Assembly: GCA_963748215.1 (NCBI GenBank)
Contig: CAVVHS010000006.1
Span: 768,001 to 832,000, forward strand
Source: an uncultured Gammaproteobacteria bacterium
Lineage (GTDB): Bacteria; Pseudomonadota; Gammaproteobacteria; UBA9214
Length of the DNA: 64,000 nt
Direction of reading: 5' to 3'
Each line of letters opens with the position of its first letter. Positions within the stretch are counted from its first letter, which is position 1. The notes under the pieces are model-generated. The model worked only from the letters and a program-made list of their open reading frames with translations. It did not search any database and was not told the DNA's origin. Below, one piece after another: positions 2,468-50,894 of this stretch. Both the position numbers and the translations under genes were made by a program.

Positions 2468-4209
2468 TGATCTCGGCCGCGGTGCCGCTGCCGATCCACA
2501 ACGGCCCGATACACGACCCGACCGCGATCCTGTATGTCCATACCTCGGATGTCGTCAAGGATGCCCTCGGTAATCCCATCGGCCTCAAGCCGAACACGCC
2601 GGTCGAACCGCTGGTACTGCGTGCCGCCGCGGGTGACTGTATCAGGGTCACGCTGCGCAACGAACTGCCTGTGCAAATGCCGGAGCTGCCGACCTATACC
2701 AGCCTGCTCGGCGCCAACAAGCGCGACCGGCTGGGTATCGAGGGCTCGACCACCTTCCAGACCAACCTGCTGGCCCCGTCCAACCGTGTCGGCCTGCATG
2801 CGCAGATGCTGGCCTATGATGTGTCGCGCGCCGACGGCACGGTGGTGGGTGAGAACCACACCCTGGCACAGGTCATCGGGCCAAACAGCGCCCCGGCCAC
2901 GTTCGAGTGGTATGCCGGCGATCTAGGCTTCACCCGCAACGGCGCGGGTCAGTGGACGCTAACTGCCACGCCGGTGGAGTTCGGGGTGTCGAACCTGGCA
3001 CCGGCGGACAAAATCAAGCACGGGATGAAGTCGGCGGTCGGCCAGCTGATCGTCGAGCCGCTGGGCTCCAGCTGGATCGAGGACGGCGTCAATGAAAATC
3101 CGACGGTCCCCGTGGCCGATCCGCTGCGCTTTGCCTATGCACCCGGTGCGACCCGGCTCGAGGCCTCGGTCATCAAGAACGGCGCCCGCATCTTCCGCGA
3201 CCTGTCGGTGGTGCTGACCAAGCAGCAGACCCAGTACTACGCGGACAGCCAGCCGGTCGAACACCTCAACGGTGAAGGAGCAGGCATCCCCGAGGATCCA
3301 CAGGAAGCCACCGGCATGGCGATCAACTACCAGATCGATCCGCTCTGGTTCCGGCTCGGCATCCTGCCGAATTCGCCCTTCGGTAACGACATGACACCGT
3401 CGAGCTTCGGCAATGCGGTGCCTCCGAATGTGGACGGGACCCAGTTCGACATCTACAGCAACAACCGGCCGCATCCGCCCGGCAGCCCGGAGGTCGGCCC
3501 CATCGGCGAACCGTCCACGCCGGTGTTCCTGGCACGGCCCGGTGAACCCCTGCGCGTGCGCCTCGGCGTACCGCATGGCACCAACCGCGGGTCCACCTTC
3601 AGCCTGCATGGCCACACCTGGCAGCGCGACCCGTACGTGTGTCCGGATGATGCGCGCAACGGTCTGGTTGGCGCCTGTCTGCCGACCAGTGTCGGTTCAC
3701 AGGCCATCGGGCACAACCCGCAGGGCTTCTACCAGGGTGCGCAGGAAAGCATCTGGTCCACCGCACACTACGACTTCGTGCTGGCGAGTGCCGGCGGTGC
3801 GGGTGGGATCCTGGGTGATTACCTGTTCCGCGATACGGGTTCCTTCGGTAACGCCTCCGGGCTGTGGGGTATCGTCCGGGTCGAGAACCGACCCGATGCC
3901 GATGGCGACGGTATCTTCGACGATGTGGACAACTGCATCAACGTGGCTAATGGACCGCTCGCCGGTCCGGTGAATGGCCTGAGTCAGTGCGATACCGACG
4001 GCGATGGTATCGGCAACATCTGCGATGCGGACTTCAATGGCAATGGCATCGTGGATCCGACTGATTTTACGCTCCTGAAGTCCACCCTGGGGTCGACACT
4101 GGCGCCGAATCAGGACCTGAACTGCAACGGCATCGTGGATCCCACCGACTTCACGACCATCAAAGCGTTGCTGGGGCAGCCGCCGGGCCCGTCCTGCTGC
4201 GGAGTCTAG
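2467..4209 (+). CDS. mnxG: MnxG-like multicopper oxidase, C-terminal segment, ending in thrombospondin-3-like Ca-binding repeats and a dockerin-like domain
   Basis: GPIHDPTAILYV, EPLVLRAAAGDCI, FSLHGHTW and GLWGIVRV cupredoxin motifs. C-terminus has DADGDGIFDDVDNC and a duplicated DxNxNGIVDPTDF. No signal peptide, so probably a continuation of segment 2. Confidence 0.75.
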   Translation: MISAAVPLPIHNGPIHDPTAILYVHTSDVVKDALGNPIGLKPNTPVEPLVLRAAAGDCIRVTLRNELPVQMPELPTYTSLLGANKRDRLGIEGSTTFQTNLLAPSNRVGLHAQMLAYDVSRADGTVVGENHTLAQVIGPNSAPATFEWYAGDLGFTRNGAGQWTLTATPVEFGVSNLAPADKIKHGMKSAVGQLIVEPLGSSWIEDGVNENPTVPVADPLRFAYAPGATRLEASVIKNGARIFRDLSVVLTKQQTQYYADSQPVEHLNGEGAGIPEDPQEATGMAINYQIDPLWFRLGILPNSPFGNDMTPSSFGNAVPPNVDGTQFDIYSNNRPHPPGSPEVGPIGEPSTPVFLARPGEPLRVRLGVPHGTNRGSTFSLHGHTWQRDPYVCPDDARNGLVGACLPTSVGSQAIGHNPQGFYQGAQESIWSTAHYDFVLASAGGAGGILGDYLFRDTGSFGNASGLWGIVRVENRPDADGDGIFDDVDNCINVANGPLAGPVNGLSQCDTDGDGIGNICDADFNGNGIVDPTDFTLLKSTLGSTLAPNQDLNCNGIVDPTDFTTIKALLGQPPGPSCCGV

Positions 4210-4411
4210 TTACCGCCGGTACCAGGGCGTGTTGCAGGTTGTCAGTTTGAGCCTGCAGCACGTCTCGGATGTCGTGCTGTACAATTTAGCCACACGTACT
4301 GGCTTGCCGGAGCCGGACTTCCCGACCTGATGCGTACGCCTGTTTAACCTGTGACCTGGAGTCCCATTCAAAATCAGTGACATTCCGATCGTGACTGCTG
4401 CCTGCGGGGTT

Positions 4412-4427
4412 TGGCGCAAAGAGTGCA
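4412..4427 (+). promoter_or_regulatory. Putative sigma-54 (-24/-12) promoter for the accessory operon
   Basis: TGGCGCAAAGAGTGCA: GG and GC are 12 bp apart, ~150 bp upstream of the 4575 start. Confidence 0.5.
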
Positions 4428-4574
4428 CGCGACAAACCCAGCCAGGCTGAATCGACATCCGTTCTGATATTCATGACATTTTTGCAACTTTTCATTGTTT
4501 TTTTTGACAAAAGCAAGCAGGAACCGAACGCGCCTGCTGATCAAAATTACAAGCGCCAAGGCAAGGGGTAAACC

Positions 4575-6551
4575 GTGCACTCCAGCTCTACAAACCGCCG
4601 CTTCTGGTGGCCTTTCATCCTGTTGTTACCCTTATTCCTGGCACTGATCACCGGCGGCCGCGCTGCGGAACCAGAGCCGGTAAAGCCCGATACGGGCCGC
4701 CTGGTCAGACACGGCATTGTGGTCGACTTCGAGGCACTGCCGCTCGCAGGCGACGACCAGGGGCTCATGGAAGGGCAACTGGCCGAGATCCGCTTCCGAC
4801 TCACCGAGGAGGCGACCGGCGCACCGGTCCGGGGTATTACGCCCGGCGCCTGGATGGACATGGGTGAAGTCATCCAGGGCCAGTCAGGGGCCGAGCAGAA
4901 AACCTGCAAGGAAAAGATCGCGCTCTATCTCAAGGGTGTGGTTGGCATCCGCCCCATGATCGACCTCAACAGCTACTATGTGCTGATCCTCAACAAGGAA
5001 CCGAGTATCTCCGTCGTTGATCCGCTGGTTTCGATGGTGGGCAAGACCAGCACCCTGGCGAGCATCCGTCTCGAGGCCGCGGGGGCCGACTGGGCCAGCA
5101 GCGCGGACGAAAAGCTCGTCTTCGTGAGCATGCCCAGGGCCGGCAAGGTGGCACTGCTGGATACCAGCAAGTTCAAGGTGACCGACAACATCCCGGCCGG
5201 CACGGCACCGACCCGGGTGGCGCTGCAACCTGATGGACGTTATCTCTGGGTCGGCAACAATGCGCCAACCGCGGATGCCAGCGGTGTCACCGTTATCGAC
5301 ACCGACACGCTGGAATCCCTGGCCACCCTTCCCACCGGGGCAGGACATCACGAGATCGCCTTCTCCGCCGACAGCCGTTATGCCTTCGTGAGCAATCGCG
5401 ATGCCGGCACGGTCAGTGTCATCGACGTCCAGTCACGCGCCGTGCTGAAGGACATCGAGACCGGCCCGCTGCCTATTTCGCTCGCCTATTCAGCGCTGTC
5501 CCGGGCGCTGTACGTCGCCGACGGCAAGGACGGCCACATCAGCGTGATCGACACCGAGCAGTTCGAGGTGCAAAAACGTATCGAGGCCAGTCCCGGTCTG
5601 GGACCGTTGCGTTTCGCACCGGACGGCCGCTATGCCGTGGTGGTCAACCCCAGCCGGGAGACGGTCTACGTGATCGACGCGGCGGCCAACGAAATCGTGC
5701 ACCGCATCGCCGTGGCCGGCCAGCCCTACCAGGTCGTGTTCAGCCGTGCCTTTGCCTACGTGCGTCCACTTGCCAGCCAGAGCATCTCCATGATCGACCT
5801 AAGCAGTCTCGGCGCAGGCAAGCAACCGATCGTGAAAAGCTTCGAGGCGGGCAGTGTAGCGCCCAGCCTGGCCGGTGACCTGTCACTGGCCGACTCGCTG
5901 GCCGCGACCAGCAGCGAGGCGGCCATGTTCATCGTCAACCCCGGTGACAACACCACCTATGTGTACATGGAAGGCATGAACGCACCGTCCAGCAACTACT
6001 CGGTGCGCGGTGCCAGCGCGCGCGGCGTGATGGTGGTTGATCGCAGTCTGCACGAAATCGAGCCGGGGCTGTTTTCCGCCAAGGTGAAGCTTCCCGCCCC
6101 CGGCCGCTACGATGTGGCGTTCCTGCTGGATACGCCGCAGATCCTGCATTGTTTTTCGGCGGAAGCCCGGCCCAATCCCCTGATCGATCACGTCACGGCG
6201 CCGCTCACCATTGAATACCAGCTGCAAGACCGGCGCATGCATGTCGACACCCCGGCGCCACTGCGCTTCCGGCTCGTCGATTCCCATACCGGCCAGCCCG
6301 TGACCGGGTTGAAGGACGTGGGCGTGCGCTACTTCCGGGTTCCAGGCACTGACCGCAAGGAGATGCGTGCCACAGAGGAAGGTGACGGCGTCTACCGGGC
6401 CGATCTGGCACTGTCGCATCCGGGCGCCTATTACGTGCACGTGGGTGTGCCATCCGCGGGCATCGCCTACCAGGATCTGCCCTACTTCACTCTGGTCGCC
6501 GTCCAGGCCGCCGCCGGTTCACCGCGTGTGCCACAGGAGACGTCGCCATGA
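4575..6551 (+). CDS. YVTN/cytochrome d1-like beta-propeller protein with C-terminal YtkA-like domain
   Basis: Signal peptide, repeated blades (PDGRYLWV, ADSRYAFVSN, VSVIDT), C-terminal EEGDGVYRA...PGAYYVHV. Confidence 0.8.
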   Translation: MHSSSTNRRFWWPFILLLPLFLALITGGRAAEPEPVKPDTGRLVRHGIVVDFEALPLAGDDQGLMEGQLAEIRFRLTEEATGAPVRGITPGAWMDMGEVIQGQSGAEQKTCKEKIALYLKGVVGIRPMIDLNSYYVLILNKEPSISVVDPLVSMVGKTSTLASIRLEAAGADWASSADEKLVFVSMPRAGKVALLDTSKFKVTDNIPAGTAPTRVALQPDGRYLWVGNNAPTADASGVTVIDTDTLESLATLPTGAGHHEIAFSADSRYAFVSNRDAGTVSVIDVQSRAVLKDIETGPLPISLAYSALSRALYVADGKDGHISVIDTEQFEVQKRIEASPGLGPLRFAPDGRYAVVVNPSRETVYVIDAAANEIVHRIAVAGQPYQVVFSRAFAYVRPLASQSISMIDLSSLGAGKQPIVKSFEAGSVAPSLAGDLSLADSLAATSSEAAMFIVNPGDNTTYVYMEGMNAPSSNYSVRGASARGVMVVDRSLHEIEPGLFSAKVKLPAPGRYDVAFLLDTPQILHCFSAEARPNPLIDHVTAPLTIEYQLQDRRMHVDTPAPLRFRLVDSHTGQPVTGLKDVGVRYFRVPGTDRKEMRATEEGDGVYRADLALSHPGAYYVHVGVPSAGIAYQDLPYFTLVAVQAAAGSPRVPQETSP

Positions 6552-7516
6552 ACCTGCGCCTGACAGGCGCACTCTGCGCGCTCGCCCTGGGGTTCGGCAC
6601 GTTGCCGGGGGTACTGGCCGATGCCTTCGGCCTGGCGGCCCGGGTCAACGGCATGGAGATCTCCAATGAAAAGCTCGAGAAGAGCTTTGAGGAATACCTG
6701 CGCGAGAACAATGTGAACGTGGGCGCCATTCGCTATCCCGATCGATACAAGGCCATGAGGCGGGAGACGCTCGATTTGCTGATCGACCAGCTACTGCTGT
6801 GGCAGGCGGCACAGGACAGCGACATGGTTGCGACACCCGCTGAAGTCAGCGCCGCGTTCGATGACATGCGTGCCCAGTTCAAGTCGGCGGAGAACTTTCG
6901 CGACCGGCTCACTGCCGAAGGTTACAGCGAAGACAGTTACCGGGAGCACCTCAAGCAGCTGGTCTCGGCCAGCAAGTACCTGGAGAGCCTTAGCGGCAAC
7001 ATTGAAGTGAGCGATACGGAAGTACACGACTTCTATACCCGGAACCCGGATAAATTCCAGCTGCCCGAAGTCATCCGGGCGCGCCACATCCTGATCAAGC
7101 TGGATGCCTCGTTGTCCGATGAGGAGCAGCGCGACAGGCGCAGGCATGTCGAGGACATCCTGGCACAGGCACGCGCGGGTGCCGACTTCGCCCGGCTCGC
7201 CACCGAGCATTCAGAAGATACCAGCGCCGCCCACGGTGGTGACCTCGGCTACTTTCCGCGCGGAAGAATGGTAAAACCGTTCGAGGACGCCGCGTTCGGT
7301 CTGCAGCCGGGCGAGCTGTCCGGGGTAGTGGAAACTCCCTTCGGCCTGCACATCATCAAGCTGGAGGAACGTCACGCGCCCAAACTGCTGCCCGAAGCCG
7401 ATGCCCGCGAACGGATAACCGGGTATCTCACGGCGCTGAAGCGTGAACAGGCCGTATCCACCGGCATGGAAACGCTGCGTTCCAGCGCCAAGATCGAAAT
7501 ACTGGTGCCGTTATGA
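6548..7516 (+). CDS. SurA/PpiC (parvulin) peptidyl-prolyl isomerase
   Basis: ARVNG SurA N-domain, RARHILIK, GGDLGYF, FEDAAF, VETPFGLHII. Confidence 0.9.
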   Translation: MNLRLTGALCALALGFGTLPGVLADAFGLAARVNGMEISNEKLEKSFEEYLRENNVNVGAIRYPDRYKAMRRETLDLLIDQLLLWQAAQDSDMVATPAEVSAAFDDMRAQFKSAENFRDRLTAEGYSEDSYREHLKQLVSASKYLESLSGNIEVSDTEVHDFYTRNPDKFQLPEVIRARHILIKLDASLSDEEQRDRRRHVEDILAQARAGADFARLATEHSEDTSAAHGGDLGYFPRGRMVKPFEDAAFGLQPGELSGVVETPFGLHIIKLEERHAPKLLPEADARERITGYLTALKREQAVSTGMETLRSSAKIEILVPL

Positions 7517-8244
7517 AACATTCTGCCGCACGGAGCGTAACCGGATTGCCGAAGCCCTGCTTGCGCCCTGCGCACCTGCCGGTCGCGCTGCTGACGCTGG
7601 TCCTGCTGGCGCCGCCGGCCGTGCGGGCGGCTGAGGAGCACCACCATCACCAGCACCCCGAGCCGGTTTCCGGCGCCGACCCGCACGCCCACCACCGGGC
7701 CATGCTCGAGCAGGCACAGCCGGGTCCGGCCACCGCCACCGATGTCACGCTGCACAATGCGACGCTCCTGACCCAGAACGGCGCGCAGGTGCGGTTCGCC
7801 AGCGATGTCATCGCTGACCACATCGTGGTAATGGACTTCGTCTACACCACCTGTACCACCGTGTGCCCGGTGCTGTCCGCGGTCTTCGGCCAGGTGCAGG
7901 AACGTCTGGGCGACCGGCTCGGACAGGAGGTGTCGCTGGTATCAGTCAGTGTTGACCCCGTCCGCGACACACCGCCACGACTCAAGGCCTACGCCGCCCG
8001 GCATCGCGCACAGGATGGCTGGGTCTGGCTCACCGGGGATAAATCGCAGGTGGACCAGGTGCTGACCGGGCTTGGTGCCTACGCGCCGCGTTTCGAGGAC
8101 CATCCGGCCATGGTCCTGGTGGGCGATGGACGTTCCGGGACCTGGATCCGTTTCTTCGGCTTCCCGGGTCCGGACCAGATCCTGGCCACGGTGGATGAAC
8201 TCTCGGCGGCCCGCCAGGCGGCCGCCCAATCCCTGCAGGAGTAA
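7513..8244 (+). CDS. SCO1/SenC copper chaperone with His-rich N-terminus
   Basis: YTTCTTVCP (CxxxC), SVDPVRDTP, conserved His, and an HHHHQH...HAHH linker. Confidence 0.9.
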   Translation: MKHSAARSVTGLPKPCLRPAHLPVALLTLVLLAPPAVRAAEEHHHHQHPEPVSGADPHAHHRAMLEQAQPGPATATDVTLHNATLLTQNGAQVRFASDVIADHIVVMDFVYTTCTTVCPVLSAVFGQVQERLGDRLGQEVSLVSVSVDPVRDTPPRLKAYAARHRAQDGWVWLTGDKSQVDQVLTGLGAYAPRFEDHPAMVLVGDGRSGTWIRFFGFPGPDQILATVDELSAARQAAAQSLQE

Positions 8245-8250
8245 TGCACC

Positions 8251-8868
8251 ATGCGCACGATTTTCAGCTTGTTACTCGCCCTGGCCTGGCTAGCGCCTGC
8301 CGTGTCCGCAACACCACCGGAGACTACGGGCGGCGCGGCAGCGACACCCGCTGCGACAACCCAGGCCGACGCTGACGAGGCCTCGAGGCAGTACTTCACG
8401 GACCTGAAGCTGGTCACCCAGGACGGGAAGGATGTGCGCTTCTTCAGCGATGTCCTGCAAGACAAGATCGTGCTCATCAATTTCATCTTCACCCACTGTG
8501 AGGGTGCCTGCCCGCTGATGACCCGCAAGCTCAAATCGAGCCGCGACCTGCTCGATGCGTCACTGCGTGCCAGGGTGCATTTCGTCTCCATCAGCATCGA
8601 CCCGGAACGTGACACGCCGGCCGCGATGAAGGCATTTGCCGCCCAACACGAACTCGCCGACGACAAGAACTGGCTGTTCCTGACCGGTGATCCGCAAAAC
8701 GTGAACCAGATCGTCAGGAAGCTCGGCCAGTACACGCCGGACGTCGAGGAGCACTCGACACTGGTGCTGGCCGGCAATGTCAGGGATCACTACTGGATGA
8801 AGATCTCGCCCATGGTGCCGGCGGAGGGTATCGCGGACAAGCTGCGCCTGCTGGCACAGGAGCAGTGA
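8251..8868 (+). CDS. SCO1/SenC copper chaperone
   Basis: FTHCEGACP, SIDPERDTP, WLFLTG, EEHST. Confidence 0.9.
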   Translation: MRTIFSLLLALAWLAPAVSATPPETTGGAAATPAATTQADADEASRQYFTDLKLVTQDGKDVRFFSDVLQDKIVLINFIFTHCEGACPLMTRKLKSSRDLLDASLRARVHFVSISIDPERDTPAAMKAFAAQHELADDKNWLFLTGDPQNVNQIVRKLGQYTPDVEEHSTLVLAGNVRDHYWMKISPMVPAEGIADKLRLLAQEQ

Positions 8869-10460
8869 GGCGCGCCATCACGGCCATGCGCCGGACCCGT
8901 CCCTGGTCAACGGCTGCGCTTGCCCTGTTGCTTGCCGGCACTGCCGCGGCCACGGCCCTCACGCCCCAGGAACAGCGCGGCAAGCAGATCTATATCCACG
9001 GCACCAGCGCCGCCGGCACGGCGATCACCGCGCACGTGGGCACGCAGGCGGTTGCATTGCCTGCAAGCGCGATACCCTGCGCCAGCTGCCATGGCCCCGA
9101 CGGACGCGGCCGCCCCGAAGGCGGTGTGAATCCGACCGACATCACCTGGCAGAACCTCATCAAACACTATGGCCACCGGCACGACTTCGGCCGCCAGCAC
9201 CCGGCTTTCGACACGGCTTCGCTGGCGGCCGCAATCACCCGGGGGATTGATCCGGCCGGCAACCGGCTGGATGCGGCCATGCCACTCTACAGCATGGAAC
9301 CGGATGACCTGGCTGCCCTGATCGCCTATCTGAAGTGCATCGAGACTGACAGCGACCGCGGCCTATCTGCAACAAACATCCGACTGGCCACGCAGCTTCC
9401 CCTGTCGGGTCGTCTGGCTGGACTGGGCGAGGCCATGCGTGCGGTCATGCTGGCCTATTTCGCGGACCTCAACGCGGCCGGTGGAATCCACGGCCGCCAC
9501 CTCGAACTCGTGGTCATCCCGTTCGGCGACTCGCCGCGCACGGCGCTGACCAATCTCGAGCAGGGTCTGGCCGAACAGGAAATCTTCGCCCTGATCGGCA
9601 GCTACAGCGTAGGCCTGGAAGACGAGACGACACGGCTGATGGAACAGCAAGCGCTGCCGCTGGTCGGCCCCTTTACCCTGCAGCCGCAGTCCGGAGCGGG
9701 CCTGGACCGCCACACCTTCTACCTGTATTCCGGGCAGGAACAACAGGTCCGGGTGCTGGTGGATCATGCGGGTGATACACAGGCAGCACAGGCGCCGCGC
9801 CTCGCCGTCGCAGGCCCCGACACGCCCACCCTCACCAGGCTTGGCCAGGTGATCACAGAGCAGGCACACCGTCACGGCTGGGACACGGTACAGACTTTCG
9901 GTTATCCGCCCGGCCAGCTGGTCCCGGCGCAGCTGGCCGCGGCACTGCGAGATACAGGGAATACCGCGCTGTTTTTCTTCGGCACCAGTGACGAGCTGAA
10001 TGCCTTACTCGTCACCCTGGGTGAATCAGACCAGCCACCGGCGGTTTATCTGCTCTCAAGCCTGGCGACGCCTGCCCTGCTCACCGCCCCGGCAGTGTTC
10101 GACCAGCGGATCTTTATCGCCTACCCGACACTGCCGCGTGACGTGACGGCGCGCGGCCAGCAGGAGTACAACGCACTCAGGCAAAAGTACGATCTGCCCG
10201 AGACGCACATCTCGGGACAGATCGCCGCCTACGCCGCCGCCAGAACGCTCGTCGAGGGTCTGAAACGCGCTGGCAGGGACCTGAGCCGGCAAGGGCTGGT
10301 CAGTGCGCTGGAAGGCCTGTACCGTTTCGACACCGGGCTCACCCCGCCGCTGACCTACAATGCGAATCGTCGCATCGGCGCACTGGGTGCCCATGTGGTC
10401 GCAGTGCAGCTCGAAGCCGGTCGCTACGCCCCGGTGGGTGCGTGGCAACCGCTCGATTGA
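8865..10460 (+). CDS. Cytochrome c fused to a periplasmic branched-chain-amino-acid-type ligand-binding domain
   Basis: CASCH heme motif with distal AMP Met, then PLSG...NAAGGIHGR and EGLKRAG periplasmic-binding-protein signatures. Confidence 0.8.
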   Translation: MRRAITAMRRTRPWSTAALALLLAGTAAATALTPQEQRGKQIYIHGTSAAGTAITAHVGTQAVALPASAIPCASCHGPDGRGRPEGGVNPTDITWQNLIKHYGHRHDFGRQHPAFDTASLAAAITRGIDPAGNRLDAAMPLYSMEPDDLAALIAYLKCIETDSDRGLSATNIRLATQLPLSGRLAGLGEAMRAVMLAYFADLNAAGGIHGRHLELVVIPFGDSPRTALTNLEQGLAEQEIFALIGSYSVGLEDETTRLMEQQALPLVGPFTLQPQSGAGLDRHTFYLYSGQEQQVRVLVDHAGDTQAAQAPRLAVAGPDTPTLTRLGQVITEQAHRHGWDTVQTFGYPPGQLVPAQLAAALRDTGNTALFFFGTSDELNALLVTLGESDQPPAVYLLSSLATPALLTAPAVFDQRIFIAYPTLPRDVTARGQQEYNALRQKYDLPETHISGQIAAYAAARTLVEGLKRAGRDLSRQGLVSALEGLYRFDTGLTPPLTYNANRRIGALGAHVVAVQLEAGRYAPVGAWQPLD

Positions 10461-17712: not shown

Positions 17713-17875
17713 TGCCAGAGGGTGTCCGCGGCTGTTATGTTTTTTAATGCCGGAACGGTAAATGCCCGCCGCGTGGCCGGCATCATCATCTGATGAGGCA
17801 ACCGCTGCGCCAGCAATCCCCCGGCATCTGCGGTTCACTACAACCAGTAATACACCTTCGGGAGAAGACTGCACT

Positions 17876-18640
17876 ATGCGTCTGCACAGACTATCAGCGA
17901 TGACCGCACTGATCCTGCTCGTCGCGGCCTGCACGGCCGATGAGTCACCCGGGCTGAAACAGGAAGACGAACGGATTAACTACAGCCTCGGTCACCAGAT
18001 CGGGACAGATTTCAAGCGCCAGGGCGTGACGCTGGACGCTGCCGCCATCGCGCGGGGCATGCAGGACGCGCTCGGCGAGGCCGAACCCCTGCTGCCAAAG
18101 GACGACATGGAGCAGCGCCTGCTGAAGCTGAAAGGACAGATCACCGAAGACATGCAATCCGAGCAGCTGCAGCGGGTCAAGGCGCGTAAAGAAGTCAATG
18201 AGCGCAAGCTCCGTGAGGCCCAGGCGTTCCTCGAGGAGAACGCCAAAAAACCGGGCATTAAGACACGTTCCAGTGGCCTGCAGTACCGGGTGATCAGCGA
18301 GGGCAGCGGTGCCAGGCCAGTGCCCCTGGACCAGGTGAACTTCCATTATACGGGTCGACGGATCGACGGGAGTGAATTCGACAATTCCCATGCTGCCGGC
18401 AAGCCGAGATCCATCCGCGTAGCGGACATGATTCCAGGCCTCAAGGAGGCCGTGCTTATGATGCAACCTGGCGCCAGGTGGGAACTCTATATTCCACCTG
18501 ACCTGGCCTATGGCAGGACATCTCCCCTCGCCTACCAGGCGGTGATCATAGAACTCGAATTACTCTCTGTGGACAGCAATGACAGCAAGACGACGTCAAC
18601 TACCGCGCCTGAAAGCGTGCAGGATACCCAACAACCCTGA
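17876..18640 (+). CDS. FKBP-type (Mip/FkpA-like) PPIase, lipoprotein, divergent
   Basis: ATG after GGAG, lipobox LVAAC, NYSLGHQIG dimer domain, SGLQYRV, EFDNS, IPPDLAYG. Confidence 0.85.
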   Translation: MRLHRLSAMTALILLVAACTADESPGLKQEDERINYSLGHQIGTDFKRQGVTLDAAAIARGMQDALGEAEPLLPKDDMEQRLLKLKGQITEDMQSEQLQRVKARKEVNERKLREAQAFLEENAKKPGIKTRSSGLQYRVISEGSGARPVPLDQVNFHYTGRRIDGSEFDNSHAAGKPRSIRVADMIPGLKEAVLMMQPGARWELYIPPDLAYGRTSPLAYQAVIIELELLSVDSNDSKTTSTTAPESVQDTQQP

Positions 18641-18723
18641 CCCGGTGGATTGCCCTGGCCCGCACACGCGACCCGCTATTTCACTCTCATGACCTTCGAC
18701 CATAACGACAACGGAGAATCCGG

Positions 18724-19533
18724 ATGAAACAGTTATTAATCCTCATTACCGCACTGCTCACCCCCCTGTGTCTGGCAGGCGAGCCCGATCTCGGCACGGA
18801 TGCGGCAAAGATCAATTACAGTGTCGGCTACCAGATCGGTGGCGACTTCAAACTGCAGGGTGTCGAAATGCAACCGGACACGGTGATCCGGGGTATCCAG
18901 GACGCGCTGTCCGGGGCGCAGCCGCTCATGAGCGCCGAGGAGATGAAAACCACCATGGGTGAACTGGGCAAACGCATCGCGGACCAGCGCACCCGGGAAA
19001 AACATCTCGCCAAGACCCGGATCGAGAATGAGAACATGGAATTCCTGACCGCCAATGCCAAAAAGGAAGGCGTGGTGACCACCCCCAGCGGACTGCAGTA
19101 CAGGATCATCGAGCCGGGCACGGGCAGGACGCCCGGGGCAACGGACACCGTCACGGTCAATTACCGCGGCAGCCTGATCGACGGCAAGGAGTTCGACAGC
19201 TCGGCCAAACATGGCAAACCGGCCAGTTTCCGCGTGGACCGGGTCATTGCAGGCTGGAGCGAGGCCTTGCAGATGATGCAGGAAGGCGCCAAATGGCAAC
19301 TGTTCATTCCCCACCGACTCGCCTATGGCGAGAAGGGACCGTTGCGCGAGAAGACCCTCATCTTCGATGTCGAACTGCTGTCGGTCGATACCCCCGCTAT
19401 GGCGGCGCCAGAGGGTGGAACCCCCGCAACCGATGCCGCACCGAGCGAAGCGCCGGCCTCGGTGAAGCCTGCGACACCAGTCGAACCTGCGACGCCAGTC
19501 GAGCCAGCGACGACACCGGCCGGGACGGACTGA
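18724..19533 (+). CDS. FKBP-type PPIase with Pro/Ala/Thr-rich tail
   Basis: NYSVGYQIG, SGLQYRI, VTVNYRG, EFDSS, VIAGWSEAL, and PATPVE repeats at the C-terminus. Confidence 0.9.
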   Translation: MKQLLILITALLTPLCLAGEPDLGTDAAKINYSVGYQIGGDFKLQGVEMQPDTVIRGIQDALSGAQPLMSAEEMKTTMGELGKRIADQRTREKHLAKTRIENENMEFLTANAKKEGVVTTPSGLQYRIIEPGTGRTPGATDTVTVNYRGSLIDGKEFDSSAKHGKPASFRVDRVIAGWSEALQMMQEGAKWQLFIPHRLAYGEKGPLREKTLIFDVELLSVDTPAMAAPEGGTPATDAAPSEAPASVKPATPVEPATPVEPATTPAGTD

Positions 19534-21080: not shown

Positions 21081-21085
21081 TTAGC

Positions 21086-31423: not shown

Positions 31424-34400
31424 ATGTATTTACGAAAGCTGTTGATTGGCATCATCACCCTGTTTGCCTGCAGTAACGCCATGGCCCTACGCGATGACGT
31501 ACTGATCATTGTCAACGACAACTCGGTGGATTCGCCCCAGCTGGGGACCTATTACGCCCAGCAGCGTGACATCGATCCCGCCAACATCGTGCATGTGCGC
31601 GTGCCTGCCGGTTACTTCATCGGCTGGGACGACTTTCGCCGCCTGCGCGATCAGCTCATCGACTTCATGCAGCGCAACACGCTGGACGACCCGACCCTGA
31701 CACCGGCGGTGTGTGTGGATGGCGAGCCGCCGTATTATTGCCCGGCGGCCGTGGAGCAGTTGCGCGCTCACAGCAGGATCCGCTACCTGGTCACCACGCG
31801 CGGGGTGCCGACCCGGATGGTGGTAGACGGCTCCACCCTGTTCGATGCGACCGCGCCGACCTCGGTGGACAACTACCTCAAGTACTGGCTGCTCAATTAC
31901 TTTACCGAGGACACGCGGCTCACGTTTAACGAGCGCGAGGTGGCGTTTGGCGATGGCCGCGGCATGCGCACCGTATTGCCGGCCACCGACCGGGAACTGA
32001 TCATCGGGCGACTCGACGGGCTCACGCTGGGCTCCGCCCGGGCGCTGCTGGACCGGACCCTGGCGGCGGAACGCGGCGGCCTGTCCGGCCGCCTGTTCGG
32101 CTCCACGCGCTTCAATCGCTGGGTGGATAACAGTACCGGGCGACTGATTTACCCATCCACCGGGATCACCGGCTGGCCCTATCAGCTCGGGTTGTTTGAC
32201 GAGGCCCGTCCGGAGTGTGTCGATTACCTGAATGTTTCCGGGCTGTCGCCGGCAGGCAAGACGCCGGCGCACTGCACGGTGCAACTCAACGAGGACAGCG
32301 ACCCGGTCACCAGCGCCAGCTACCCGGCCCCGGGCAATGCCGCGAGCCGCCAGCCGCAGGCGGTGAATGCGCTGCTGTATCAGGGCTGGGTGGACGGGCA
32401 GGCGGCGGTTGGCAGTTTCGATGCCCTGCTCAACTGGCGCAAGAACGACCAGTGCACGGTCACCGAGTGCCGCGATGCGGCCGATCCCGCGGCCTGCCAG
32501 GCGGCATCCACGGATGTGTTCGGGGAACTCAACACGGACTGTGTCGGCATGGCCGACGGGTTCATGGGCTACAACCACCAGTCCTGGCCGGTGTCGTACC
32601 TGGCGGTGTGGCCGACGGGCTGGTTCCAGAGCACCGGCAACAGCAGCTGGAACGATGGCGGTCACGGTGATGTCAACCAGCTGGCCTTGCCCGAGGTGCG
32701 TACTGACACCGGCTTCGATGACAGCTTCAGCCTGTGGTTCCGCAACACCGACCAGGTGGCCGCGCCGCGCTGTTTCCCGGCCAGTGACTTCTCGGCGCCG
32801 CCAGGCCTGCCCTGTGCCGACCAGCGCCGGATAGTGCTGGCCCAGCGTATACCGCTGGCCGCGCAGACCCTGGACACCGGCAACCCCCAGACCTACCGGA
32901 TCGGCCTGCACTACCAGGCGGCCGATCTTGTGGTTGATCCGGCCACACCCGTCACCCTGCAGGTGCGCTTCTTCGTGCGCGAGGCGGGCGGCGCCCAGGT
33001 CGACTACGGCACCCGCGAGCTCGCCACGCTGGCCCCGGGCAATACCGGCTGGACACCGGTCGAGGTTGCGTTCCCGCTCGACCCGGCGCTGCATGCCGCC
33101 GCCAGTTACGACGGCATCAAGTTCCGCATCGAAACCACCGGGGTGTTTGCCGGGGCGCTGGGTATCGACGCGGTCAGCGTGCAGCAGGTGGGCGCGGGCG
33201 CGGAGCTGGCGCTCAACGGTTCCTTCAGCGAGGGTCACCGCCAGGTGGCAGCCGGCGATCATGCGGCGACGTTTCTGGACCGGCTGGGCGGCGTGGCCTT
33301 CTGGGGCAGCGTGAGCCATCACCAGTCGGCTGGCTGTGCGTTCTGCCTGAGCGGCATGGCGCCGCTGGTGTATTTCACGCGCGGCCTGCCGCTGGGGGAT
33401 GCGGTATGGTTCGCCGCCGCCAACAACAGCGGCATTCTGTATGGCGATCCGCTGTACTCGCCGGTGGCGGTACGGCTCAATCCGGTCAATGCCACGGACA
33501 CCCTGAGCGGGGTGGTGGCGCTGTCGGGCAGCACCGTGAACGGCCGGGATCCGGCCCGGGTATCGACCGGCTATCGCATCGACGTCTGTCCGGGCGAGGA
33601 TTTCCTGGTCTGTGACCGGCAGGGCAGCTGGCAGCCGACCGGCCTCAGCGGCGTGGGCGGCGCGGAGAATATGCTGCTCGGCGATTGGGACAGCACCAGT
33701 GTCGCGCCGGGTAGCTACACGCTGCGCCTGGCGGTGACCAGCCAGAATACGCTGACAGGCCGCAGTCAGACGCTGCATGACTTTTATCCCGTCCGTGTCG
33801 GGGATGCTGTACCGCCGCCGGGGCCGGGCAGTGTGCAGTTCAGCGCCGCCGGTTACAGCGTGGCGGAGAATGGCGCGAGTGTGCTGGTGATGGTGCTCCG
33901 CACCGGCGGCAGCACGGGTGCCATCACCGTCGACTATGCAAGTAGCGACGGCACGGCCACCGCGGGCAGTGACTATGGCGCGGTGGGCGGGCGGCTGCTT
34001 TTCACCGATGGCGTGATCAGCCAGTCGTTCAGCGTACCGATCGTGGATTACAGCGTGCCCGAAGCAGACGAGAGCTTTACGCTCACGCTGTCGAATGCCA
34101 CCGCTGGCGCCAGCCTGGGTGCCGTGAGCACGGCCACGGTGACTATCATCGACAACGACACTGTGGCACCTGTGCCCGACCCTGCCCCTGTCACCGATCC
34201 TGCGCCGGTGGTTGATCCGGCACCCGTAACCGATCCTGCGCCGGTGGTTGATCCGGCACCGGTGACTGATCCGGCACCGGTGACCGATCCGGCACCGGTG
34301 ACTGATCCTGCCCCGGTGGTTGACCCGGCACCGGTGGTTGATCCTGCGCCGGTGGTTGATCCTGCGCCGGTGACCGATCCGGCACCCGTAACCGATCCTG

Positions 34401-34660
34401 CGCCGGCGGTTGATCCTGCCCCGGTGACTGATCCTGCCCCGGTGGTTGACCCGGCACCGGTGGTTGATCCGGTACCCGTGACCGATCCGGCACCGGTGAC
34501 CGATCCGGCACCCGTAACCGATCCTGCCCCGGTGACTGATCCGGCACCGGTGGTTGATCCGGCACCCGTGACTGATCCTGCGCCGGCAACTGATCCGGTA
34601 CCGGTGGTTGATCCGGCGCCGGTGACCGATCCGGCACCGGTGACCGATCCGGCCCCGTGA
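31424..34660 (+). CDS. TIGR03790-like secreted protein with Calx-beta domain and start of Pro-rich stalk
   Basis: Signal peptide, VLIIVNDNSVDS..G.YYAQQRDI, SVDNYL, GRLDG, GDPLYSP. Calx-beta motifs TVDYASSDGTATAGSDY and ATVTIIDND. Confidence 0.75.
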   Translation: MYLRKLLIGIITLFACSNAMALRDDVLIIVNDNSVDSPQLGTYYAQQRDIDPANIVHVRVPAGYFIGWDDFRRLRDQLIDFMQRNTLDDPTLTPAVCVDGEPPYYCPAAVEQLRAHSRIRYLVTTRGVPTRMVVDGSTLFDATAPTSVDNYLKYWLLNYFTEDTRLTFNEREVAFGDGRGMRTVLPATDRELIIGRLDGLTLGSARALLDRTLAAERGGLSGRLFGSTRFNRWVDNSTGRLIYPSTGITGWPYQLGLFDEARPECVDYLNVSGLSPAGKTPAHCTVQLNEDSDPVTSASYPAPGNAASRQPQAVNALLYQGWVDGQAAVGSFDALLNWRKNDQCTVTECRDAADPAACQAASTDVFGELNTDCVGMADGFMGYNHQSWPVSYLAVWPTGWFQSTGNSSWNDGGHGDVNQLALPEVRTDTGFDDSFSLWFRNTDQVAAPRCFPASDFSAPPGLPCADQRRIVLAQRIPLAAQTLDTGNPQTYRIGLHYQAADLVVDPATPVTLQVRFFVREAGGAQVDYGTRELATLAPGNTGWTPVEVAFPLDPALHAAASYDGIKFRIETTGVFAGALGIDAVSVQQVGAGAELALNGSFSEGHRQVAAGDHAATFLDRLGGVAFWGSVSHHQSAGCAFCLSGMAPLVYFTRGLPLGDAVWFAAANNSGILYGDPLYSPVAVRLNPVNATDTLSGVVALSGSTVNGRDPARVSTGYRIDVCPGEDFLVCDRQGSWQPTGLSGVGGAENMLLGDWDSTSVAPGSYTLRLAVTSQNTLTGRSQTLHDFYPVRVGDAVPPPGPGSVQFSAAGYSVAENGASVLVMVLRTGGSTGAITVDYASSDGTATAGSDYGAVGGRLLFTDGVISQSFSVPIVDYSVPEADESFTLTLSNATAGASLGAVSTATVTIIDNDTVAPVPDPAPVTDPAPVVDPAPVTDPAPVVDPAPVTDPAPVTDPAPVTDPAPVVDPAPVVDPAPVVDPAPVTDPAPVTDPAPAVDPAPVTDPAPVVDPAPVVDPVPVTDPAPVTDPAPVTDPAPVTDPAPVVDPAPVTDPAPATDPVPVVDPAPVTDPAPVTDPAP

Positions 34661-35460
34661 CCGATCCGGCACCGGTGACTGATCCGGCACCCGTGACCGA
34701 TCCGGCACCGGTGACTGATCCGGCACCGGTGGTTGATCCTGCCCCGGTGGTTGATCCGGCACCGGTGACCGATCCGGCGCCGGTGACTGATCCGGCACCG
34801 GTGGTCGATCCGGCACCGGTGACCGATCCGGCACCCGTGACTGATCCGGCACCGGTGACTGATCCGGCACCGGTGACTGATCCTGCACCGGTGACTGATC
34901 CGGTACCGGTGACTGATCCTGCCCCGGTGGTTGATCCGGCACCGGTGACTGATCCGGCACCGGTGACTGATCCGGTACCGGTGACTGATCCTGCCCCGGT
35001 GACTGATCCGGCGCCGGTGACCGATCCGGCACCCGTGACTGATCCGGTACCGGTGACTGAGCCGGTACCGGTGACTGAGCCGGTACCGGTGGTTGATCCG
35101 GTACCGGTGACCGATCCGGCACCCGTGACCGATCCTGCACCGGTGGTTGATCCGGCACCGGTGACTGATCCGGCACCGGTGACTGATCCGGCACCGGTGA
35201 CTGATCCTGCCCCGGTGACTGATCCGGCACCGGTGATTGATCCTGCCCCGGTGAGCGATCCGGCACCCGTGACTGATCCTGCCCCGGTGACCGATCCGGC
35301 ACCCGTAACCGATCCGGCACCGGTGGTTGATCCGGCACCGGTGACCGATCCGGCACCCGTAACCGATCCTGCACCGGTGGTTGATCCTGCACCGGTGACC
35401 GATCCTGCGCCGGTGACTGATCCGGTACCGGTGGTTGATCCGGTGCCCGTGACTGATCCA
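34172..35460 (+). repeat. Coding tandem repeat, 18-bp unit (DPAPV[T/V]) x ~70
   Basis: Consensus GATCCGGCACCGGTGACT. One unit near 34651-34660 (GGCCCCGTGA) lacks a base. Confidence 0.95.
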
Positions 35461-36063
35461 GGCGTAGCTGTAAACACGCAGTGTTCAGAAACCTCTAACA
35501 GTCAAGATACCCGCTGGGGACGATACCGCTGGAGAAATTCCACCTGGACCATCAACCTGCTCTCCTCCACTGACAGGGCAGATGTTGATGCGCTTGCTGC
35601 CAGGGCGGATAGCCTGAATATTTTGACCGTAATCCAGGAAACCGATATCAATGGAACGCATTACTGGCGCTTGCAGGTCACCGGCTTCAACAGCCAGTCG
35701 GATGCCGAAAAGAGCTCGGCAATCATCAAGGACAAACTTGACATCGATAACGTCTGGATCTTCCGCCAGAGGCAATCTGACAACAATGCCACCAGCGACT
35801 GCCGTACGAGCTCCAGTCAAGGCACCTGGGTGATCAACCTGATGTCCTCAACCGAGCAGGCCGGTGTCGAGCAGCTCGCCGCCAGTGCCGCCAGTCTTGA
35901 CCTGGAGACTTCAACTGAAACAGCCGTGGTCAACGGCACGACATTCTGGCGCCTGCAGATTACCGGATTTGACAGCGAGTCAGACGCTGACGAATACGCG
36001 AAATATGTCAAGCAGCTACTCGGTATCAATGATATCTGGGTCTTCAGAAGAGCGAACTGGTGA
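34657..36063 (+). CDS. C-terminal part of the same protein: Pro-rich stalk and two SPOR-like domains
   Basis: The repeat continues in the shifted frame. Two WxINLxS...WRLQxTGFxSxSDA...xWxF units follow. Confidence 0.7.
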   Translation: MTDPAPVTDPAPVTDPAPVTDPAPVVDPAPVVDPAPVTDPAPVTDPAPVVDPAPVTDPAPVTDPAPVTDPAPVTDPAPVTDPVPVTDPAPVVDPAPVTDPAPVTDPVPVTDPAPVTDPAPVTDPAPVTDPVPVTEPVPVTEPVPVVDPVPVTDPAPVTDPAPVVDPAPVTDPAPVTDPAPVTDPAPVTDPAPVIDPAPVSDPAPVTDPAPVTDPAPVTDPAPVVDPAPVTDPAPVTDPAPVVDPAPVTDPAPVTDPVPVVDPVPVTDPGVAVNTQCSETSNSQDTRWGRYRWRNSTWTINLLSSTDRADVDALAARADSLNILTVIQETDINGTHYWRLQVTGFNSQSDAEKSSAIIKDKLDIDNVWIFRQRQSDNNATSDCRTSSSQGTWVINLMSSTEQAGVEQLAASAASLDLETSTETAVVNGTTFWRLQITGFDSESDADEYAKYVKQLLGINDIWVFRRANW

Positions 36064-36709
36064 GACATCTGAAATAGTGGTCCGCACATTGACTACCGAG
36101 ATCGACCTGTTCTTCGTGACCCGCCCGAACAGGCAAAGTGCGCACTCGATATTTACCCTTCAATACCACCCGACACCGGATACGGAGTAATGCGTCCACG
36201 CAGAGGTAATCGTGAGACGGAAGGTTTACCACAAAATAGTGGGCAACAAGGTCCATAATTAGAGAACGGCCGTTACGGCATGGTATTTTAAACAAGGCTC
36301 TTCCCCAAATCGAGTGGGTAGATTACCGTTGCAGGGCCTAATTCACTTGTGCCCGGCGCTTTATCGGGTATTCGGCCACCGCCTGTTGCCATTGGAGACA
36401 AGGAGTCACCCTGTCCTGTGACGCATTGCGCAGGTGAGCATCATTCCCTGCACCATCAGGTCTATTGCATCACCACGGTTACCCGCGGTCGTCATTCTTT
36501 TGTTCACGGATATCAGCGCAGCACGCCTGCTGGTTCGTGAATGGTCGAATGAATTCGACCCTGCAGACGATGAGACACCGCTGGCCGAATTCATTCGGCC
36601 AACAACCTTGCCATCAGAAGGAATGCGTCTCGTCTAACTTGATGTGTTACCCACTCAATCAGGGAAAGGTCCTTAAACAAAATAGCCTGATCCCTGCGTT
36701 CAATACAAT

Positions 36710-36738
36710 AAGAAAGAGGCCTCGCATTGCGAGGCCTC
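36710..36738 (-). terminator. Rho-independent terminator of the cohesin-like gene
   Basis: GAGGCCTCGC-AAT-GCGAGGCCTC followed by TTTCTT on the minus strand. Confidence 0.75.
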
Positions 36739-36759
36739 CCTGTAAATGGTTGATGCCTG

Positions 36760-37350
36760 TCAGGCTGATCTGCGTCTGGCAACCCCGACCAAACCAATCA
36801 AGCCCGAGCCGAACAGCCACGCAGCGGCCGGCACCGGCACGGAGGTCACCGCCACCTGACCGGCGACGTAGTCGACAGGAACAGTAACACCACCAAGGGA
36901 CCATCCGCCGAAGACATCCGCGAAGATGATGTCCGTGGCGGATCCTGCAGCACCGATGACATTGAAACTCAAATCAACGATGTTAAAGTCCGACCCGAAG
37001 AAACCTGCGCTGCGCCCAAGGAAGACGAAATCCACTGTACCGGCGGCCGCGGAGGTGTCATCAATAAAGGGGGAATCCCAGTTCGGATCACTCACCACAA
37101 TACCGGTGTACTGCAGTACGGTGGAGTTCCAGCTAATCGTGAAGGCGGCACCATCCACTGACTGAATGCCTGGCAGTGAAGGATCCCCATCCGTAAAGGA
37201 CGTCCCCACAAGGTTCAGATTCAGTGTCGTGGCCCCGTCGGTTGTAATCGGATTGGACTGAGTCAGCTGCACAGTACCGGCCATGGCCTGTCCTGCAGCC
37301 AGCCCCAACAGCACCAGTGTACAAATGGACGTTAAAATCTTCTTGTACAT
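36760..37350 (-). CDS. Cohesin-like beta-sandwich protein with VPLPA/PEP-CTERM anchor
   Basis: Signal peptide (AMA). DGAAFTISWNSTVLQYTG, AGTVDF and FNIVDLSFNV...TDIIF resemble cohesin strands. C-terminal VPVPAAAWLFGSGLIGLVGVARRR. Confidence 0.7.
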   Translation of the reverse strand: MYKKILTSICTLVLLGLAAGQAMAGTVQLTQSNPITTDGATTLNLNLVGTSFTDGDPSLPGIQSVDGAAFTISWNSTVLQYTGIVVSDPNWDSPFIDDTSAAAGTVDFVFLGRSAGFFGSDFNIVDLSFNVIGAAGSATDIIFADVFGGWSLGGVTVPVDYVAGQVAVTSVPVPAAAWLFGSGLIGLVGVARRRSA

Positions 37351-50891: not shown

Positions 50892-50894
50892 TGA

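Follow-up and report, generated by a model that had tools for sequence, protein, structure and literature searches.

A candidate cohesin-dockerin tethering system with redox enzyme cargo in an uncultured gammaproteobacterium

Introduction

What does a module bind that is appended to two different multicopper oxidases, and where does it hold them? This question is raised by a stretch of 64,000 nucleotides (nt), here called the window, from an uncultured Gammaproteobacteria bacterium (UBA9214; assembly GCA_963748215.1, contig CAVVHS010000006.1, positions 768,001-832,000, forward strand). The window encodes a part of a first oxidase (P0001, 2467-4209, +), a second oxidase (P0002, 14732-17656, +) and a small protein with a sorting tail (P0003, 36760-37350, -). 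An initial annotation had proposed that the module shared by the oxidases is a dockerin, and that P0003 is a cohesin-like docking post which holds both enzymes at the cell surface or in extracellular polymeric substances. In the following, G000 is the source genome (3.5 Mb), C6 is the contig that holds the window, and other G numbers are genomes used for comparison. We put the probability at roughly 60% that the genomic island in question encodes a cohesin-dockerin tethering system of this Gram-negative gammaproteobacterium.

Results

The module shared by the two oxidases is of the dockerin type

Translation of P0001 revealed a C terminus with TSP3-like D-x-D-G-D repeats, followed by two copies of NGIVDPTDF. 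Pfam matched TSP_3 with 24.6 bits at residues 477-495 and Dockerin_1 (PF00404, cut-off 22.9 bits) with 25.8 bits at residues 522-569. The corresponding scores in P0002 were 33.8 bits for TSP_3 and 22.3 bits for Dockerin_1, the latter slightly below the cut-off. Thus, the same appended module is present in both oxidases, as claimed at the outset, and the duplicated repeat was correctly recognized as the dockerin type I pattern.

The six-frame translation of the genome was scanned for the motif G[IV]V[DN]P[TS]D[FLY]. It occurred 18 times in 10 open reading frames (ORFs), and no occurrence was found in the reversed genome or in any of three codon-block shuffles. A genome scan with Dockerin_1 flagged all ten module-containing ORF places above the cut-off, several of them only together with in-frame neighbors. 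The ten modules were aligned, yielding profile A2. All ten contain the Ca loops DFNNNGIVDPTD and DLNGNGIVDPTD, each followed by F-T-x-x-K-x-x-I-G. The G000 modules therefore have the two tandem 12-residue EF-hand-like segments of Ca loop plus helix that a dockerin requires.

Comparison of A2 with the PDB retrieved 21 sequences at E <= 1. Solved dockerins were the best matches (2jnk/2ozn at 1.3e-5, then 8x39, 2vn6, and 3ul4), and the few EF-hand proteins appeared only at E > 0.05. In the AlphaFold2 (AF2) model of the P0002 module (pLDDT 84.9), residues 48-57 and 75-83 form the two helices. When this model was compared with the PDB by Foldseek, the first 19 matches listed were dockerin-containing chains (TMt up to 0.77; root-mean-square deviation 1.0-2.1 A over 47-52 columns), with a best E of just 0.01.

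Four further Dockerin_1 matches in G000, also with TSP3-like repeats ahead of them, lie outside the A2 module type (C2:115630-115800, C7:364268-364423, C7:420729-420839, and C3:123336-123485). An example of this other type is DIDVDGQITVSDYLLLMQMVLG, with 47.8 bits.

Two proteins with sorting tails have a predicted cohesin fold

P0003 has 196 amino acids (aa), is rich in beta strands, starts with a signal-like helix and ends with the tail VPVPAAAWLFGSGLIGLVGVARRR. A paralog, P0006, is encoded outside the window (Table 1). Each of the two has ~190 aa, made up of a signal peptide, a single cohesin domain and a VPLPA-CTERM tail. The AF2 model of P0003 (pLDDT 86.8) gave 80 Foldseek matches at E <= 0.001, with type I, II, and III cohesins at the top (E 4.1e-9, TMt 0.71-0.78). 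As modeled, P0003 has the cohesin fold, a flattened nine-stranded jelly-roll beta-sandwich. A profile of 51 family members was compared with the PDB, and 16 of the 17 hits were cohesin chains (best E 1.1e-4). The proposed cohesin-like nature of P0003 was thus borne out. With Pfam Cohesin (PF00963, cut-off 24.1 bits), P0006 was borderline (23.8 bits; 24.2 with neighbors), and a precomputed PF00963 hit exists for 3 of the 120 homologs listed.

The cohesin profile was also used to search a library of 1.84 billion representatives, in which 182 clusters were matched at E <= 1e-30. Among the best 150 of these, 137 proteins have 158-275 aa, and 13 proteins of 916-5,614 aa have 5-13 matched stretches and are, by sequence, scaffoldin-like. 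According to a pattern of our own, a PEP-CTERM-like tail is present in 112 of 125 small new representatives of 50%-identity clusters. The giant library proteins (P0125, P0167, P0242, P0251, P0255, and P0261; 2,100-5,600 aa, up to 13 cohesin stretches) have C termini of the form ...GxYYYxxxY...KGxxTIxR, which we take to recall the type-9 secretion sorting domains of Bacteroidota. In G000, profile searches revealed no multi-cohesin scaffoldin, only the two single-cohesin proteins and one decayed remnant. The latter, a weak match at C6:115428-115712 (-; E 4.7e-6) with two in-frame stops, is probably a decayed third cohesin gene.

The VPLPA-CTERM model (TIGR03370, cut-off 25.35 bits) scored 30.7 bits for P0003 and 26.8 bits for P0006, and generic PEP-CTERM models stayed below their cut-offs on P0003. 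The suspected PEP-CTERM-type tail of P0003 is therefore of the VPLPA kind. Approximately 23 proteins with such tails are encoded in G000. One exosortase was found in this genome (C4:18212-18964; PF09721, 177.8 bits). It exceeds the cut-off of the XrtA model TIGR03109 (216.7 vs 208 bits), is fused to EpsI, and is encoded alongside PrsK, PrsR, PrsT, and a chain-length determinant. The genome survey suggested by the initial annotation thus yielded both further tagged proteins and an exosortase.

The floc-protein model PepA (NF033554, cut-off 80 bits) weakly matches the C-terminal two thirds of P0003 (22.8 bits) and P0006 (29.5 bits), a hint that PepA-type floc proteins may share their cohesin-like fold. 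Upstream of the window, two paralogs of ~250 aa without a Pfam family have PEP-CTERM-type tails, VPLPPAxxLFGSGL...RR (C6:752083-752817 and C6:764215-764982). Each of their genes follows a gene for an SCO1-cytochrome c fusion and adjoins a tagged copper oxidase gene; they may encode further exosortase-sorted partners of the oxidases. A complex prediction for the cohesin domain, the dockerin module, and two Ca ions, performed without controls, gave a score of 0.14 and a mark of 0.32 and counts neither way.

Cohesin and module genes occur together and close to each other

The first profile of the cohesin family (A1) included the sorting tail and consequently matched every VPLPA-CTERM protein. A tail-less version (A3) was therefore built and was the sole one used for counts. 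Genomes were counted with A3 for cohesin and A2 for the module, both at E <= 1e-5. By this rule G019, in which a full-length cohesin-like protein was matched by A1 and none by A3, was counted as dockerin-only. Three samples were used: 54 genomes of the bacterium's own family, 401 genomes sampled from the whole class (completeness of at least 90%), and 38 genomes chosen for having the module.

In the own family, cohesin was found in 8 genomes and the module in 14. All eight cohesin genomes have the module, and cohesin was detected in 0 of 40 module-negative genomes. In the class sample, both were present in 15 genomes (12 families), cohesin only in 6, the module only in 5, and neither in 375, corresponding to an odds ratio of 187. 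Three of the six cohesin-only cases are partial matches inside large ORFs. The two genes are also neighbors: in 14 of the 15 co-carrying genomes they are located on one contig at a distance of at most 10 kb, and in 9 of the 15 within ~1 kb. The co-occurrence that the initial annotation had suggested looking for is thus seen across the class.

An example from a cultured organism is Methylomonas rivi WSC-6. Here, a DUF642/multihaem protein ends in the module, and an open frame for a cohesin with a VPLPA tail follows 4 bases on. Relatives of G000 with tagged oxidases (G104 and G105) carry cohesin genes with VPLPA-type tails, as expected if the docking proposal holds.

Each genome has its own dockerin signature

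For signature analysis, a single model served to align 35 modules of ten genomes. Between loop position 9 and helix position 19 of both repeats, identity was 62.8% within genomes (112 pairs) and 33.0% between genomes (483 pairs). In the remaining module columns, the values were 73.3% and 61.8%, respectively. The signature of each genome is common to both repeats and to unrelated cargo. It reads VDPTDFTxxK in G000, VDPxDFSxxK in G105, VDAFDIPxFR in G104, VNxxDLGxFK in G019, and VDAxDLxxFR in G002 and G007; further signatures are present in G154, G204, G241, G247, G259, G357, and G382.

The cohesins of G105 are 52-61% identical to those of G000, and those of G104 are 40-44% identical, with a G104 cargo that is 74-88% identical to that of G000. 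G105 is nearer to G000 in cohesin and dockerin helix, and G104 is nearer in cargo. Across eight genomes, cohesin identity correlated with helix identity (Spearman 0.41, Mantel p ~0.02). This is only suggestive of cohesin and dockerin helix diverging in parallel at the sequence level.

Tagged cargo and the surrounding island

Ten proteins of G000 are tagged in total. Nine of them are encoded in an island of ~96 kb, with their ORFs on C6 between 711 and 786 kb (Table 1). The initial annotation had taken P0001 for a multicopper oxidase. This is correct insofar as it is MnxG-like, and P0001 is only the 3' third of a gene which starts upstream of the window and lies in three frames. Positions 1-832, ~833-1447, and 1466-1894 of the MnxG profile NF041487 are matched in order by three consecutive ORF pieces, and the whole protein would have ~2,100 aa. 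The profile ends at P0001 residue 473, ahead of the TSP3 and dockerin tail, which marks this tail as an addition to the MnxG architecture. P0002 scored 147.5 bits with the PhsA model and 80.9 bits with the CueO model, both below the equivalog cut-offs. Its G105 ortholog is 66% identical and also has an N-terminal module.

Table 1. Features in the window and in the island; positions without a contig label are those of the window
Feature	Position	Strand	Evidence or remark
3' 4.2 kb of MnxG-like giant multicopper oxidase gene	1..4209	+	gene start C6:765322, 2.7 kb upstream of the window
TSP3 repeats and type-I-like dockerin, C-terminal in the MnxG-like protein	3895..4209	+	dockerin core 3988-4194; Pfam, alignment A2
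Five accessory genes after the MnxG-like gene	4575..10460	+	Pfam
974-aa multicopper oxidase P0002, PhsA/CueO-like, signal peptide and N-terminal module	14732..17656	+	Cu-oxidase_2 77.9 bits
TSP3 repeat and dockerin of the 974-aa oxidase, just after the signal peptide	14870..15145	+	Pfam, AF2, Foldseek
Two FKBP-type peptidyl-prolyl isomerases	17762..19533	+	Pfam FKBP_N, FKBP_C
CusB-like membrane fusion protein with heavy-metal-binding domains, and CusA/AcrB-type RND (resistance-nodulation-division) pump	19656..24376	+	Pfam HlyD_D23, HMBD, ACR_tran
Lipoprotein-like Calx-beta protein with long (PVTDPA)n repeat and two SPOR repeats	31424..36063	+	Pfam; two ORFs in different frames
Single-cohesin protein P0003, signal peptide and VPLPA-CTERM tail	36760..37350	-	AF2, Foldseek, PDB profile search, TIGR03370
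Cohesin paralog P0006, 71% identical to P0003, same tail	C6:723696-724253 (outside the window)		adjoins the protease gene on its downstream side
Tagged Cu-oxidase_2 protein, ~1,060 aa	C6 ~749.38 kb		two frames here; one 1,079-aa ORF in G104
Tagged di-haem cytochrome c peroxidase	C6		
Tagged 2,034-aa Big_9/cadherin/Ig-repeat multihaem cytochrome			internal module, MtrC-like multihaem region
Tagged S8 protease with Calx-beta	C6		directly upstream of the cohesin paralog
Tagged large hydrolase, 1,902-aa beta-lactamase-fold/DUF11/LamG/GDSL protein	contig C8		
Three tagged proteins without family			

The 1,902-aa protein was considered as an intact MnxG paralog and ruled out, since it shares only the last 111 residues (tblastn, Pfam). 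For two family-less cargo proteins, a protein-atlas look-up led only to clusters that are unnamed or called "Glycoprotein gp2", and a function was not obtained. By eye, most cargo ORFs start with a signal peptide or a hydrophobic signal-like stretch. No such stretch was seen in a 206-aa ORF and in the frame-broken Cu-oxidase piece, each of which is probably just the 3' part of a longer gene.

The accessory genes after the MnxG-like gene encode a cytochrome-D1-like beta-propeller with YtkA, a SurA-like peptidyl-prolyl isomerase (PPIase), two copper chaperones of the SCO1/SenC type, and a fusion of cytochrome c with a periplasmic binding protein. Elsewhere in the island, too, genes for PPIases and for SCO1-cytochrome c fusions surround those of the oxidases. 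A type II secretion system (T2SS) set comprising GspE, F, G, H, K, D, and a weak C is located between the cohesin/protease gene pair and the peroxidase gene. Just past the cohesin gene, the G+C content falls from ~0.62-0.68 to 0.42-0.52 (window 36000-56000), placing this gene at a compositional boundary. A tRNA scan of the 64-kb window found none, and the island boundary could thus not be set by a tRNA. At 27215-28390 (+), a single ORF combines a fatty-acid desaturase domain with an ISL3 transposase fragment, which suggests an insertion-sequence scar within the island.

Orthologs of G000 cargo are also tagged in G104, G105, and G247. In other families, the tagged proteins include an LVIVD propeller and galactose-oxidase-like, LamG/cadherin, DUF1800, and beta-helix proteins. 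Since the cargo differs in this way, the tag and the anchor are general, and the redox cargo is a feature of the G000 lineage. In G241, which belongs to another family, a tagged galactose-oxidase/glyoxal-oxidase-like copper radical oxidase (Kelch and GO-like E-set; L132:1989-5018) is encoded next to a cohesin cluster. Copper oxidases thus recur as cargo outside the G000 lineage.

Observations that weigh against the tethering system

Several observations weigh against a cohesin-dockerin tethering system with metal-oxidizing cargo at the cell surface. The first of these concern the pairing itself. P0003 scored 21.5 bits with Pfam Cohesin (E 2.9e-4), below the cut-off, and five of the ten tagged proteins stayed below 22.9 bits in whole-protein Dockerin_1 searches (17.6-22.3 bits). 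Hence, in the profile check proposed by the initial annotation, P0001 passed its cut-off, and P0002 and P0003 fell short. The dockerin model had zero Foldseek matches in the PDB at E <= 0.001. In the class sample, the partner was absent from 5 of 20 module-positive and from 6 of 21 cohesin-positive genomes. Among the 38 genomes chosen for the module, cohesin was found in 22 and was absent from 16 at E <= 1e-5; those lacking it include Myxococcota, Sorangium, and some metagenome-assembled genomes. Fisher p values overstate the association, because kin and islands are not independent. Finally, the covariation of cohesin and dockerin is modest, and the pair G000-G104 does not fit well, with 40-44% identity in cohesin but 27% in the helix; the completeness of G104 is 61%, one of its modules is of the G000 type, and a second cohesin of this genome may be missing from the assembly.

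The partner-less genomes would be expected if there were no specific pairing. The module would then be a Ca-dependent stabilizing, secretion, or polysaccharide-binding tag, the cohesin protein would be one of ~23 exosortase substrates and have another role, for example in a matrix of flocs or extracellular polymeric substances (EPS), and a shared mobile island would explain the co-occurrence. Outside cellulosomes, dockerin- and cohesin-like modules that lack a known partner are widespread; the available texts of two studies (PMC5244752, PMC9012536) describe their function as unknown. The weak PepA similarity of both cohesin proteins and the large number of tailed proteins in G000 also fit this reading. 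However, hitch-hiking on an island leaves unexplained why the genes are tightly adjacent, often by less than 1 kb, in 12 families with different cargo. It also does not explain a helix face that is alike within a genome yet divergent between genomes, or the parallel fast divergence of the cohesin. We therefore regard the absence of a specific pairing as rather unlikely.

The location of the complex is the second point. The VPLPA-specific XrtD model scored 129.6 vs 400 bits, and only an XrtA-like exosortase was found in G000. The SPOR protein encoded next to P0003 (Table 1) is also relevant. Its two ORFs meet inside the (PVTDPA)n repeat and are probably one gene, which is convergent to the P0003 gene at a distance of ~700 bp. 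The protein is 79% identical over 792 aa to the product of G104 L120:55-3300. The latter is a single ORF of 1,082 aa that has TSP3 and a dockerin (25.1 bits) where G000 has (PVTDPA)n, followed by SPOR. SPOR binds peptidoglycan. The contact of this G104 dockerin would thus be periplasmic, or the post would be tied to the wall. Moreover, di-haem peroxidases, CueO-like oxidases, SCO1, SurA, and FKBP proteins are classically periplasmic.

Accordingly, the pairing could be real and take place in the periplasm. The C-terminal helix would hold the cohesin at the inner membrane, or the cohesin would be attached to the wall, and the copper and haem enzymes would be concentrated at the periplasmic face, for metal detoxification or maturation and not for surface display. 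The neighboring SCO1, SurA-like, FKBP, cytochrome c, and CusBA genes are of periplasmic types, and the VPLPA tail itself comprises a transmembrane helix with a basic cluster behind it. Against this stand the island's own T2SS and two cargo proteins that look like typical surface proteins, namely the 2,034-aa cadherin/Ig multihaem (MtrC-like) and the 1,902-aa DUF11/LamG protein. In addition, exosortases traffic PEP-CTERM proteins to the cell exterior, and the manganese oxidases of Pseudomonas act outside the cell, as described in the available texts of PMC12188702 and PMC13689576, respectively. A periplasmic pairing is, in our view, unlikely.

The third point concerns the substrate. The three MnxG-like pieces score 1138.6, 748.6, and 376 bits, ~2263 bits in total, below the equivalog cut-off of 3100 bits, and the gene is broken into three reading frames in the assembly, at ~327 and ~2463-2484. 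Compared with the G104 ortholog, the window has one additional base at ~327 and 7 fewer bases at ~2463-2484. In contigs of the DNA runs X1 and X3 and of the RNA-library run X9, the additional base at 327/328 is absent, and there is a difference of -5 or +7 bases at 2463-2484. Contigs of run X8 do not cover the break sites, and the X9 contigs are 90-95% alike and were not taken as proof of expression. A single frame is restored at both sites in the three runs, making an assembly error or strain variation likelier than a pseudogene; the latter was set aside, and the gene is probably intact in nature. Other frame breaks in the island were noted at C6:~749375-749382, at window position ~34657, and at C6:760830-762945, and the G104 ortholog of the MnxG-like gene is itself in four frame pieces. 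These breaks look like consensus errors of long-read assemblies.

With a real pairing, the cargo might still not oxidize manganese and might act on other substrates, such as Fe(II), Cu(I), or phenolic and humic compounds, or serve extracellular electron transfer. The MnxG score below the cut-off points in this direction, as do the resemblance of P0002 to PhsA and CueO, its nearest models, the copper handling suggested by the CusBA and SCO1 genes, and the MtrC-like multihaem cargo. Geobacter genes with dockerin and cupredoxin/laccase annotation are discussed for Fe(III) reduction in the available description (PMC6199725). On the other hand, the three pieces span the whole MnxG profile of 1,894 positions in order. 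The combination of large multicopper oxidases with a T2SS of their own also parallels the manganese oxidase set of Pseudomonas putida, although the peroxidase of that set, MopA, is of another type than the di-haem peroxidase found here. We give a real pairing with such non-manganese cargo an even chance.

Discussion

With these reservations, we propose that the G000 island encodes a tethering system that would work as follows. Ten proteins with the TSP3 and type-I-like dockerin tag would be exported by Sec or Tat. The XrtA exosortase/EPS system would sort the two cohesin proteins and release them from the inner membrane to the outer envelope or the EPS, where they would act as docking posts. 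In the periplasm, the cargo would fold and receive its copper or haem, helped by the SCO1-cytochrome c fusions and PPIases of the island, and would then cross the outer membrane, most likely via the island's own T2SS. The Ca-loaded dockerin would bind its cohesin anchor in the outer envelope or the EPS. Docking would retain the redox enzymes at the cell surface, together with any metal oxide made from a substrate such as Mn(II). The cohesin-dockerin core of the initial annotation is supported by co-occurrence, adjacency, and signatures; its scope, two oxidases and one post, was too narrow in view of ten tagged proteins, two cohesins, a T2SS, and other cargo elsewhere.

A more far-reaching reading would be a hitherto undescribed display system that is widespread in Gram-negative bacteria. 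In it, exosortase-sorted cohesin posts would hold TSP3-dockerin proteins exported by T2SS, with a co-evolving code specific to each lineage, and the set described here would be an extracellular, metal-oxidizing one in the EPS or outer envelope. We advance this only tentatively, at somewhat less than even odds.

The nearest working analog is the clostridial type I cohesin-dockerin system with single-cohesin anchors, to which dockerin enzymes bind directly at the cell (Clostridium thermocellum OlpA and OlpC, fold hits 3UL4, 4DH2; also cellulosomal 1OHZ, 2VN5). It shares with the G000 system a cohesin beta-sandwich and a dockerin of two Ca loops with their helices, in which internal duplication gives both halves the same contact residues. 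Both systems have many proteins per dockerin type, species-specific signatures, and an anchor made of one cohesin plus an envelope sorting element. In contrast to the clostridial system, G000 is Gram-negative, the sorting element is a VPLPA/PEP-CTERM exosortase tail rather than SLH (S-layer homology) or sortase, and a T2SS is associated. Further, the G000 module always follows TSP3 repeats with a conserved Cys pair. The cargo consists of redox metalloenzymes and a protease and not of glycoside hydrolases as in cellulosomes, which are also distinguished by the multi-cohesin scaffoldin. In its use outside cellulose degradation, the system resembles non-cellulosomal modules, which occur in all domains of life: the NagH-NagJ pair of Clostridium perfringens (2OZN/2JNK) was the best A2 match, and 2XDH of Archaeoglobus fulgidus was among the fold hits.

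For anaerobic methanotrophic archaea (ANME), dockerins and cohesins have been proposed to attach proteins or cytochromes to the outside of the cell (PMC5244752, PMC9012536). In their available texts, the ANME papers name no partner pairs and state that experiments are needed. An exosortase-sorted cohesin, oxidase cargo, and an analysis of co-variation are absent from the available texts of these accounts. In Saccharophagus degradans, dockerin-like and cohesin-like ORFs have been noted in the literature, as far as its available text goes. Outer-surface multicopper proteins of Geobacter, a metal-transforming Gram-negative bacterium, are similar to the G000 cargo in that a cupredoxin/laccase-type protein has a dockerin annotation; unlike in G000, the architecture includes fibronectin type III (FnIII) domains, and no cohesin partner is mentioned in the available description (PMC6199725).

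As for the enzymes, a 2026 review reports in its available text that the manganese oxidases of P. putida and other pseudomonads are exported by Sec and a specialized T2SS and are active on the outer surface (PMC13689576). The words "dockerin" and "anchor" do not occur in that text. Like P. putida GB-1 with MnxG, McoA, and MopA, G000 has a giant MnxG-type oxidase, a second multicopper oxidase, and a peroxidase, with Sec signals, a dedicated T2SS near the oxidase genes, and SCO1 and cytochrome c genes around them. Unlike in GB-1, the MnxG profile is followed by a TSP3 and dockerin tail, the peroxidase is a di-haem cytochrome c peroxidase and not MopA, and the equivalog score is not reached.

The sorting machinery resembles the XrtA/PEP-CTERM EPS system of the floc protein PepA. 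The C-terminal tail, the arrangement of XrtA-EpsI, PrsK, PrsR, PrsT, and a chain-length determinant in one locus, and the weak PepA similarity of the cohesin proteins are in common. To our knowledge and by our searches, published work ascribes neither a cohesin fold nor a role in protein docking to any PEP-CTERM substrate. Our literature search found no paper that joins dockerin, cohesin, and PEP-CTERM. It found "cohesin domain" together with exosortase only in the ANME review, and "VPLPA-CTERM" in one unrelated paper. No exosortase-sorted cohesin and no cohesin-dockerin assembly of metal oxidases was found described. One relative carries the automatic NCBI name "cohesin domain-containing protein". 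The domains are therefore already annotated, and the system itself is undescribed as far as our searches reach.

These findings bear on several subjects. The available text of the review on manganese oxidation (PMC13689576) does not explain how secreted metal oxidases are retained on the cell, and a docking tag, if true, would be a concrete answer. PEP-CTERM substrates are numerous and mostly without known function; if the present reading is true, the cohesin subfamily would define an anchor role among them, the first protein-docking function. Cohesin-dockerin biology with lineage-specific codes would then extend to Gram-negative envelopes and to redox enzymes, and surface display in proteobacteria could draw on natural orthogonal pairs. 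The cultured carrier Methylomonas rivi WSC-6 makes experiments on such a system possible.

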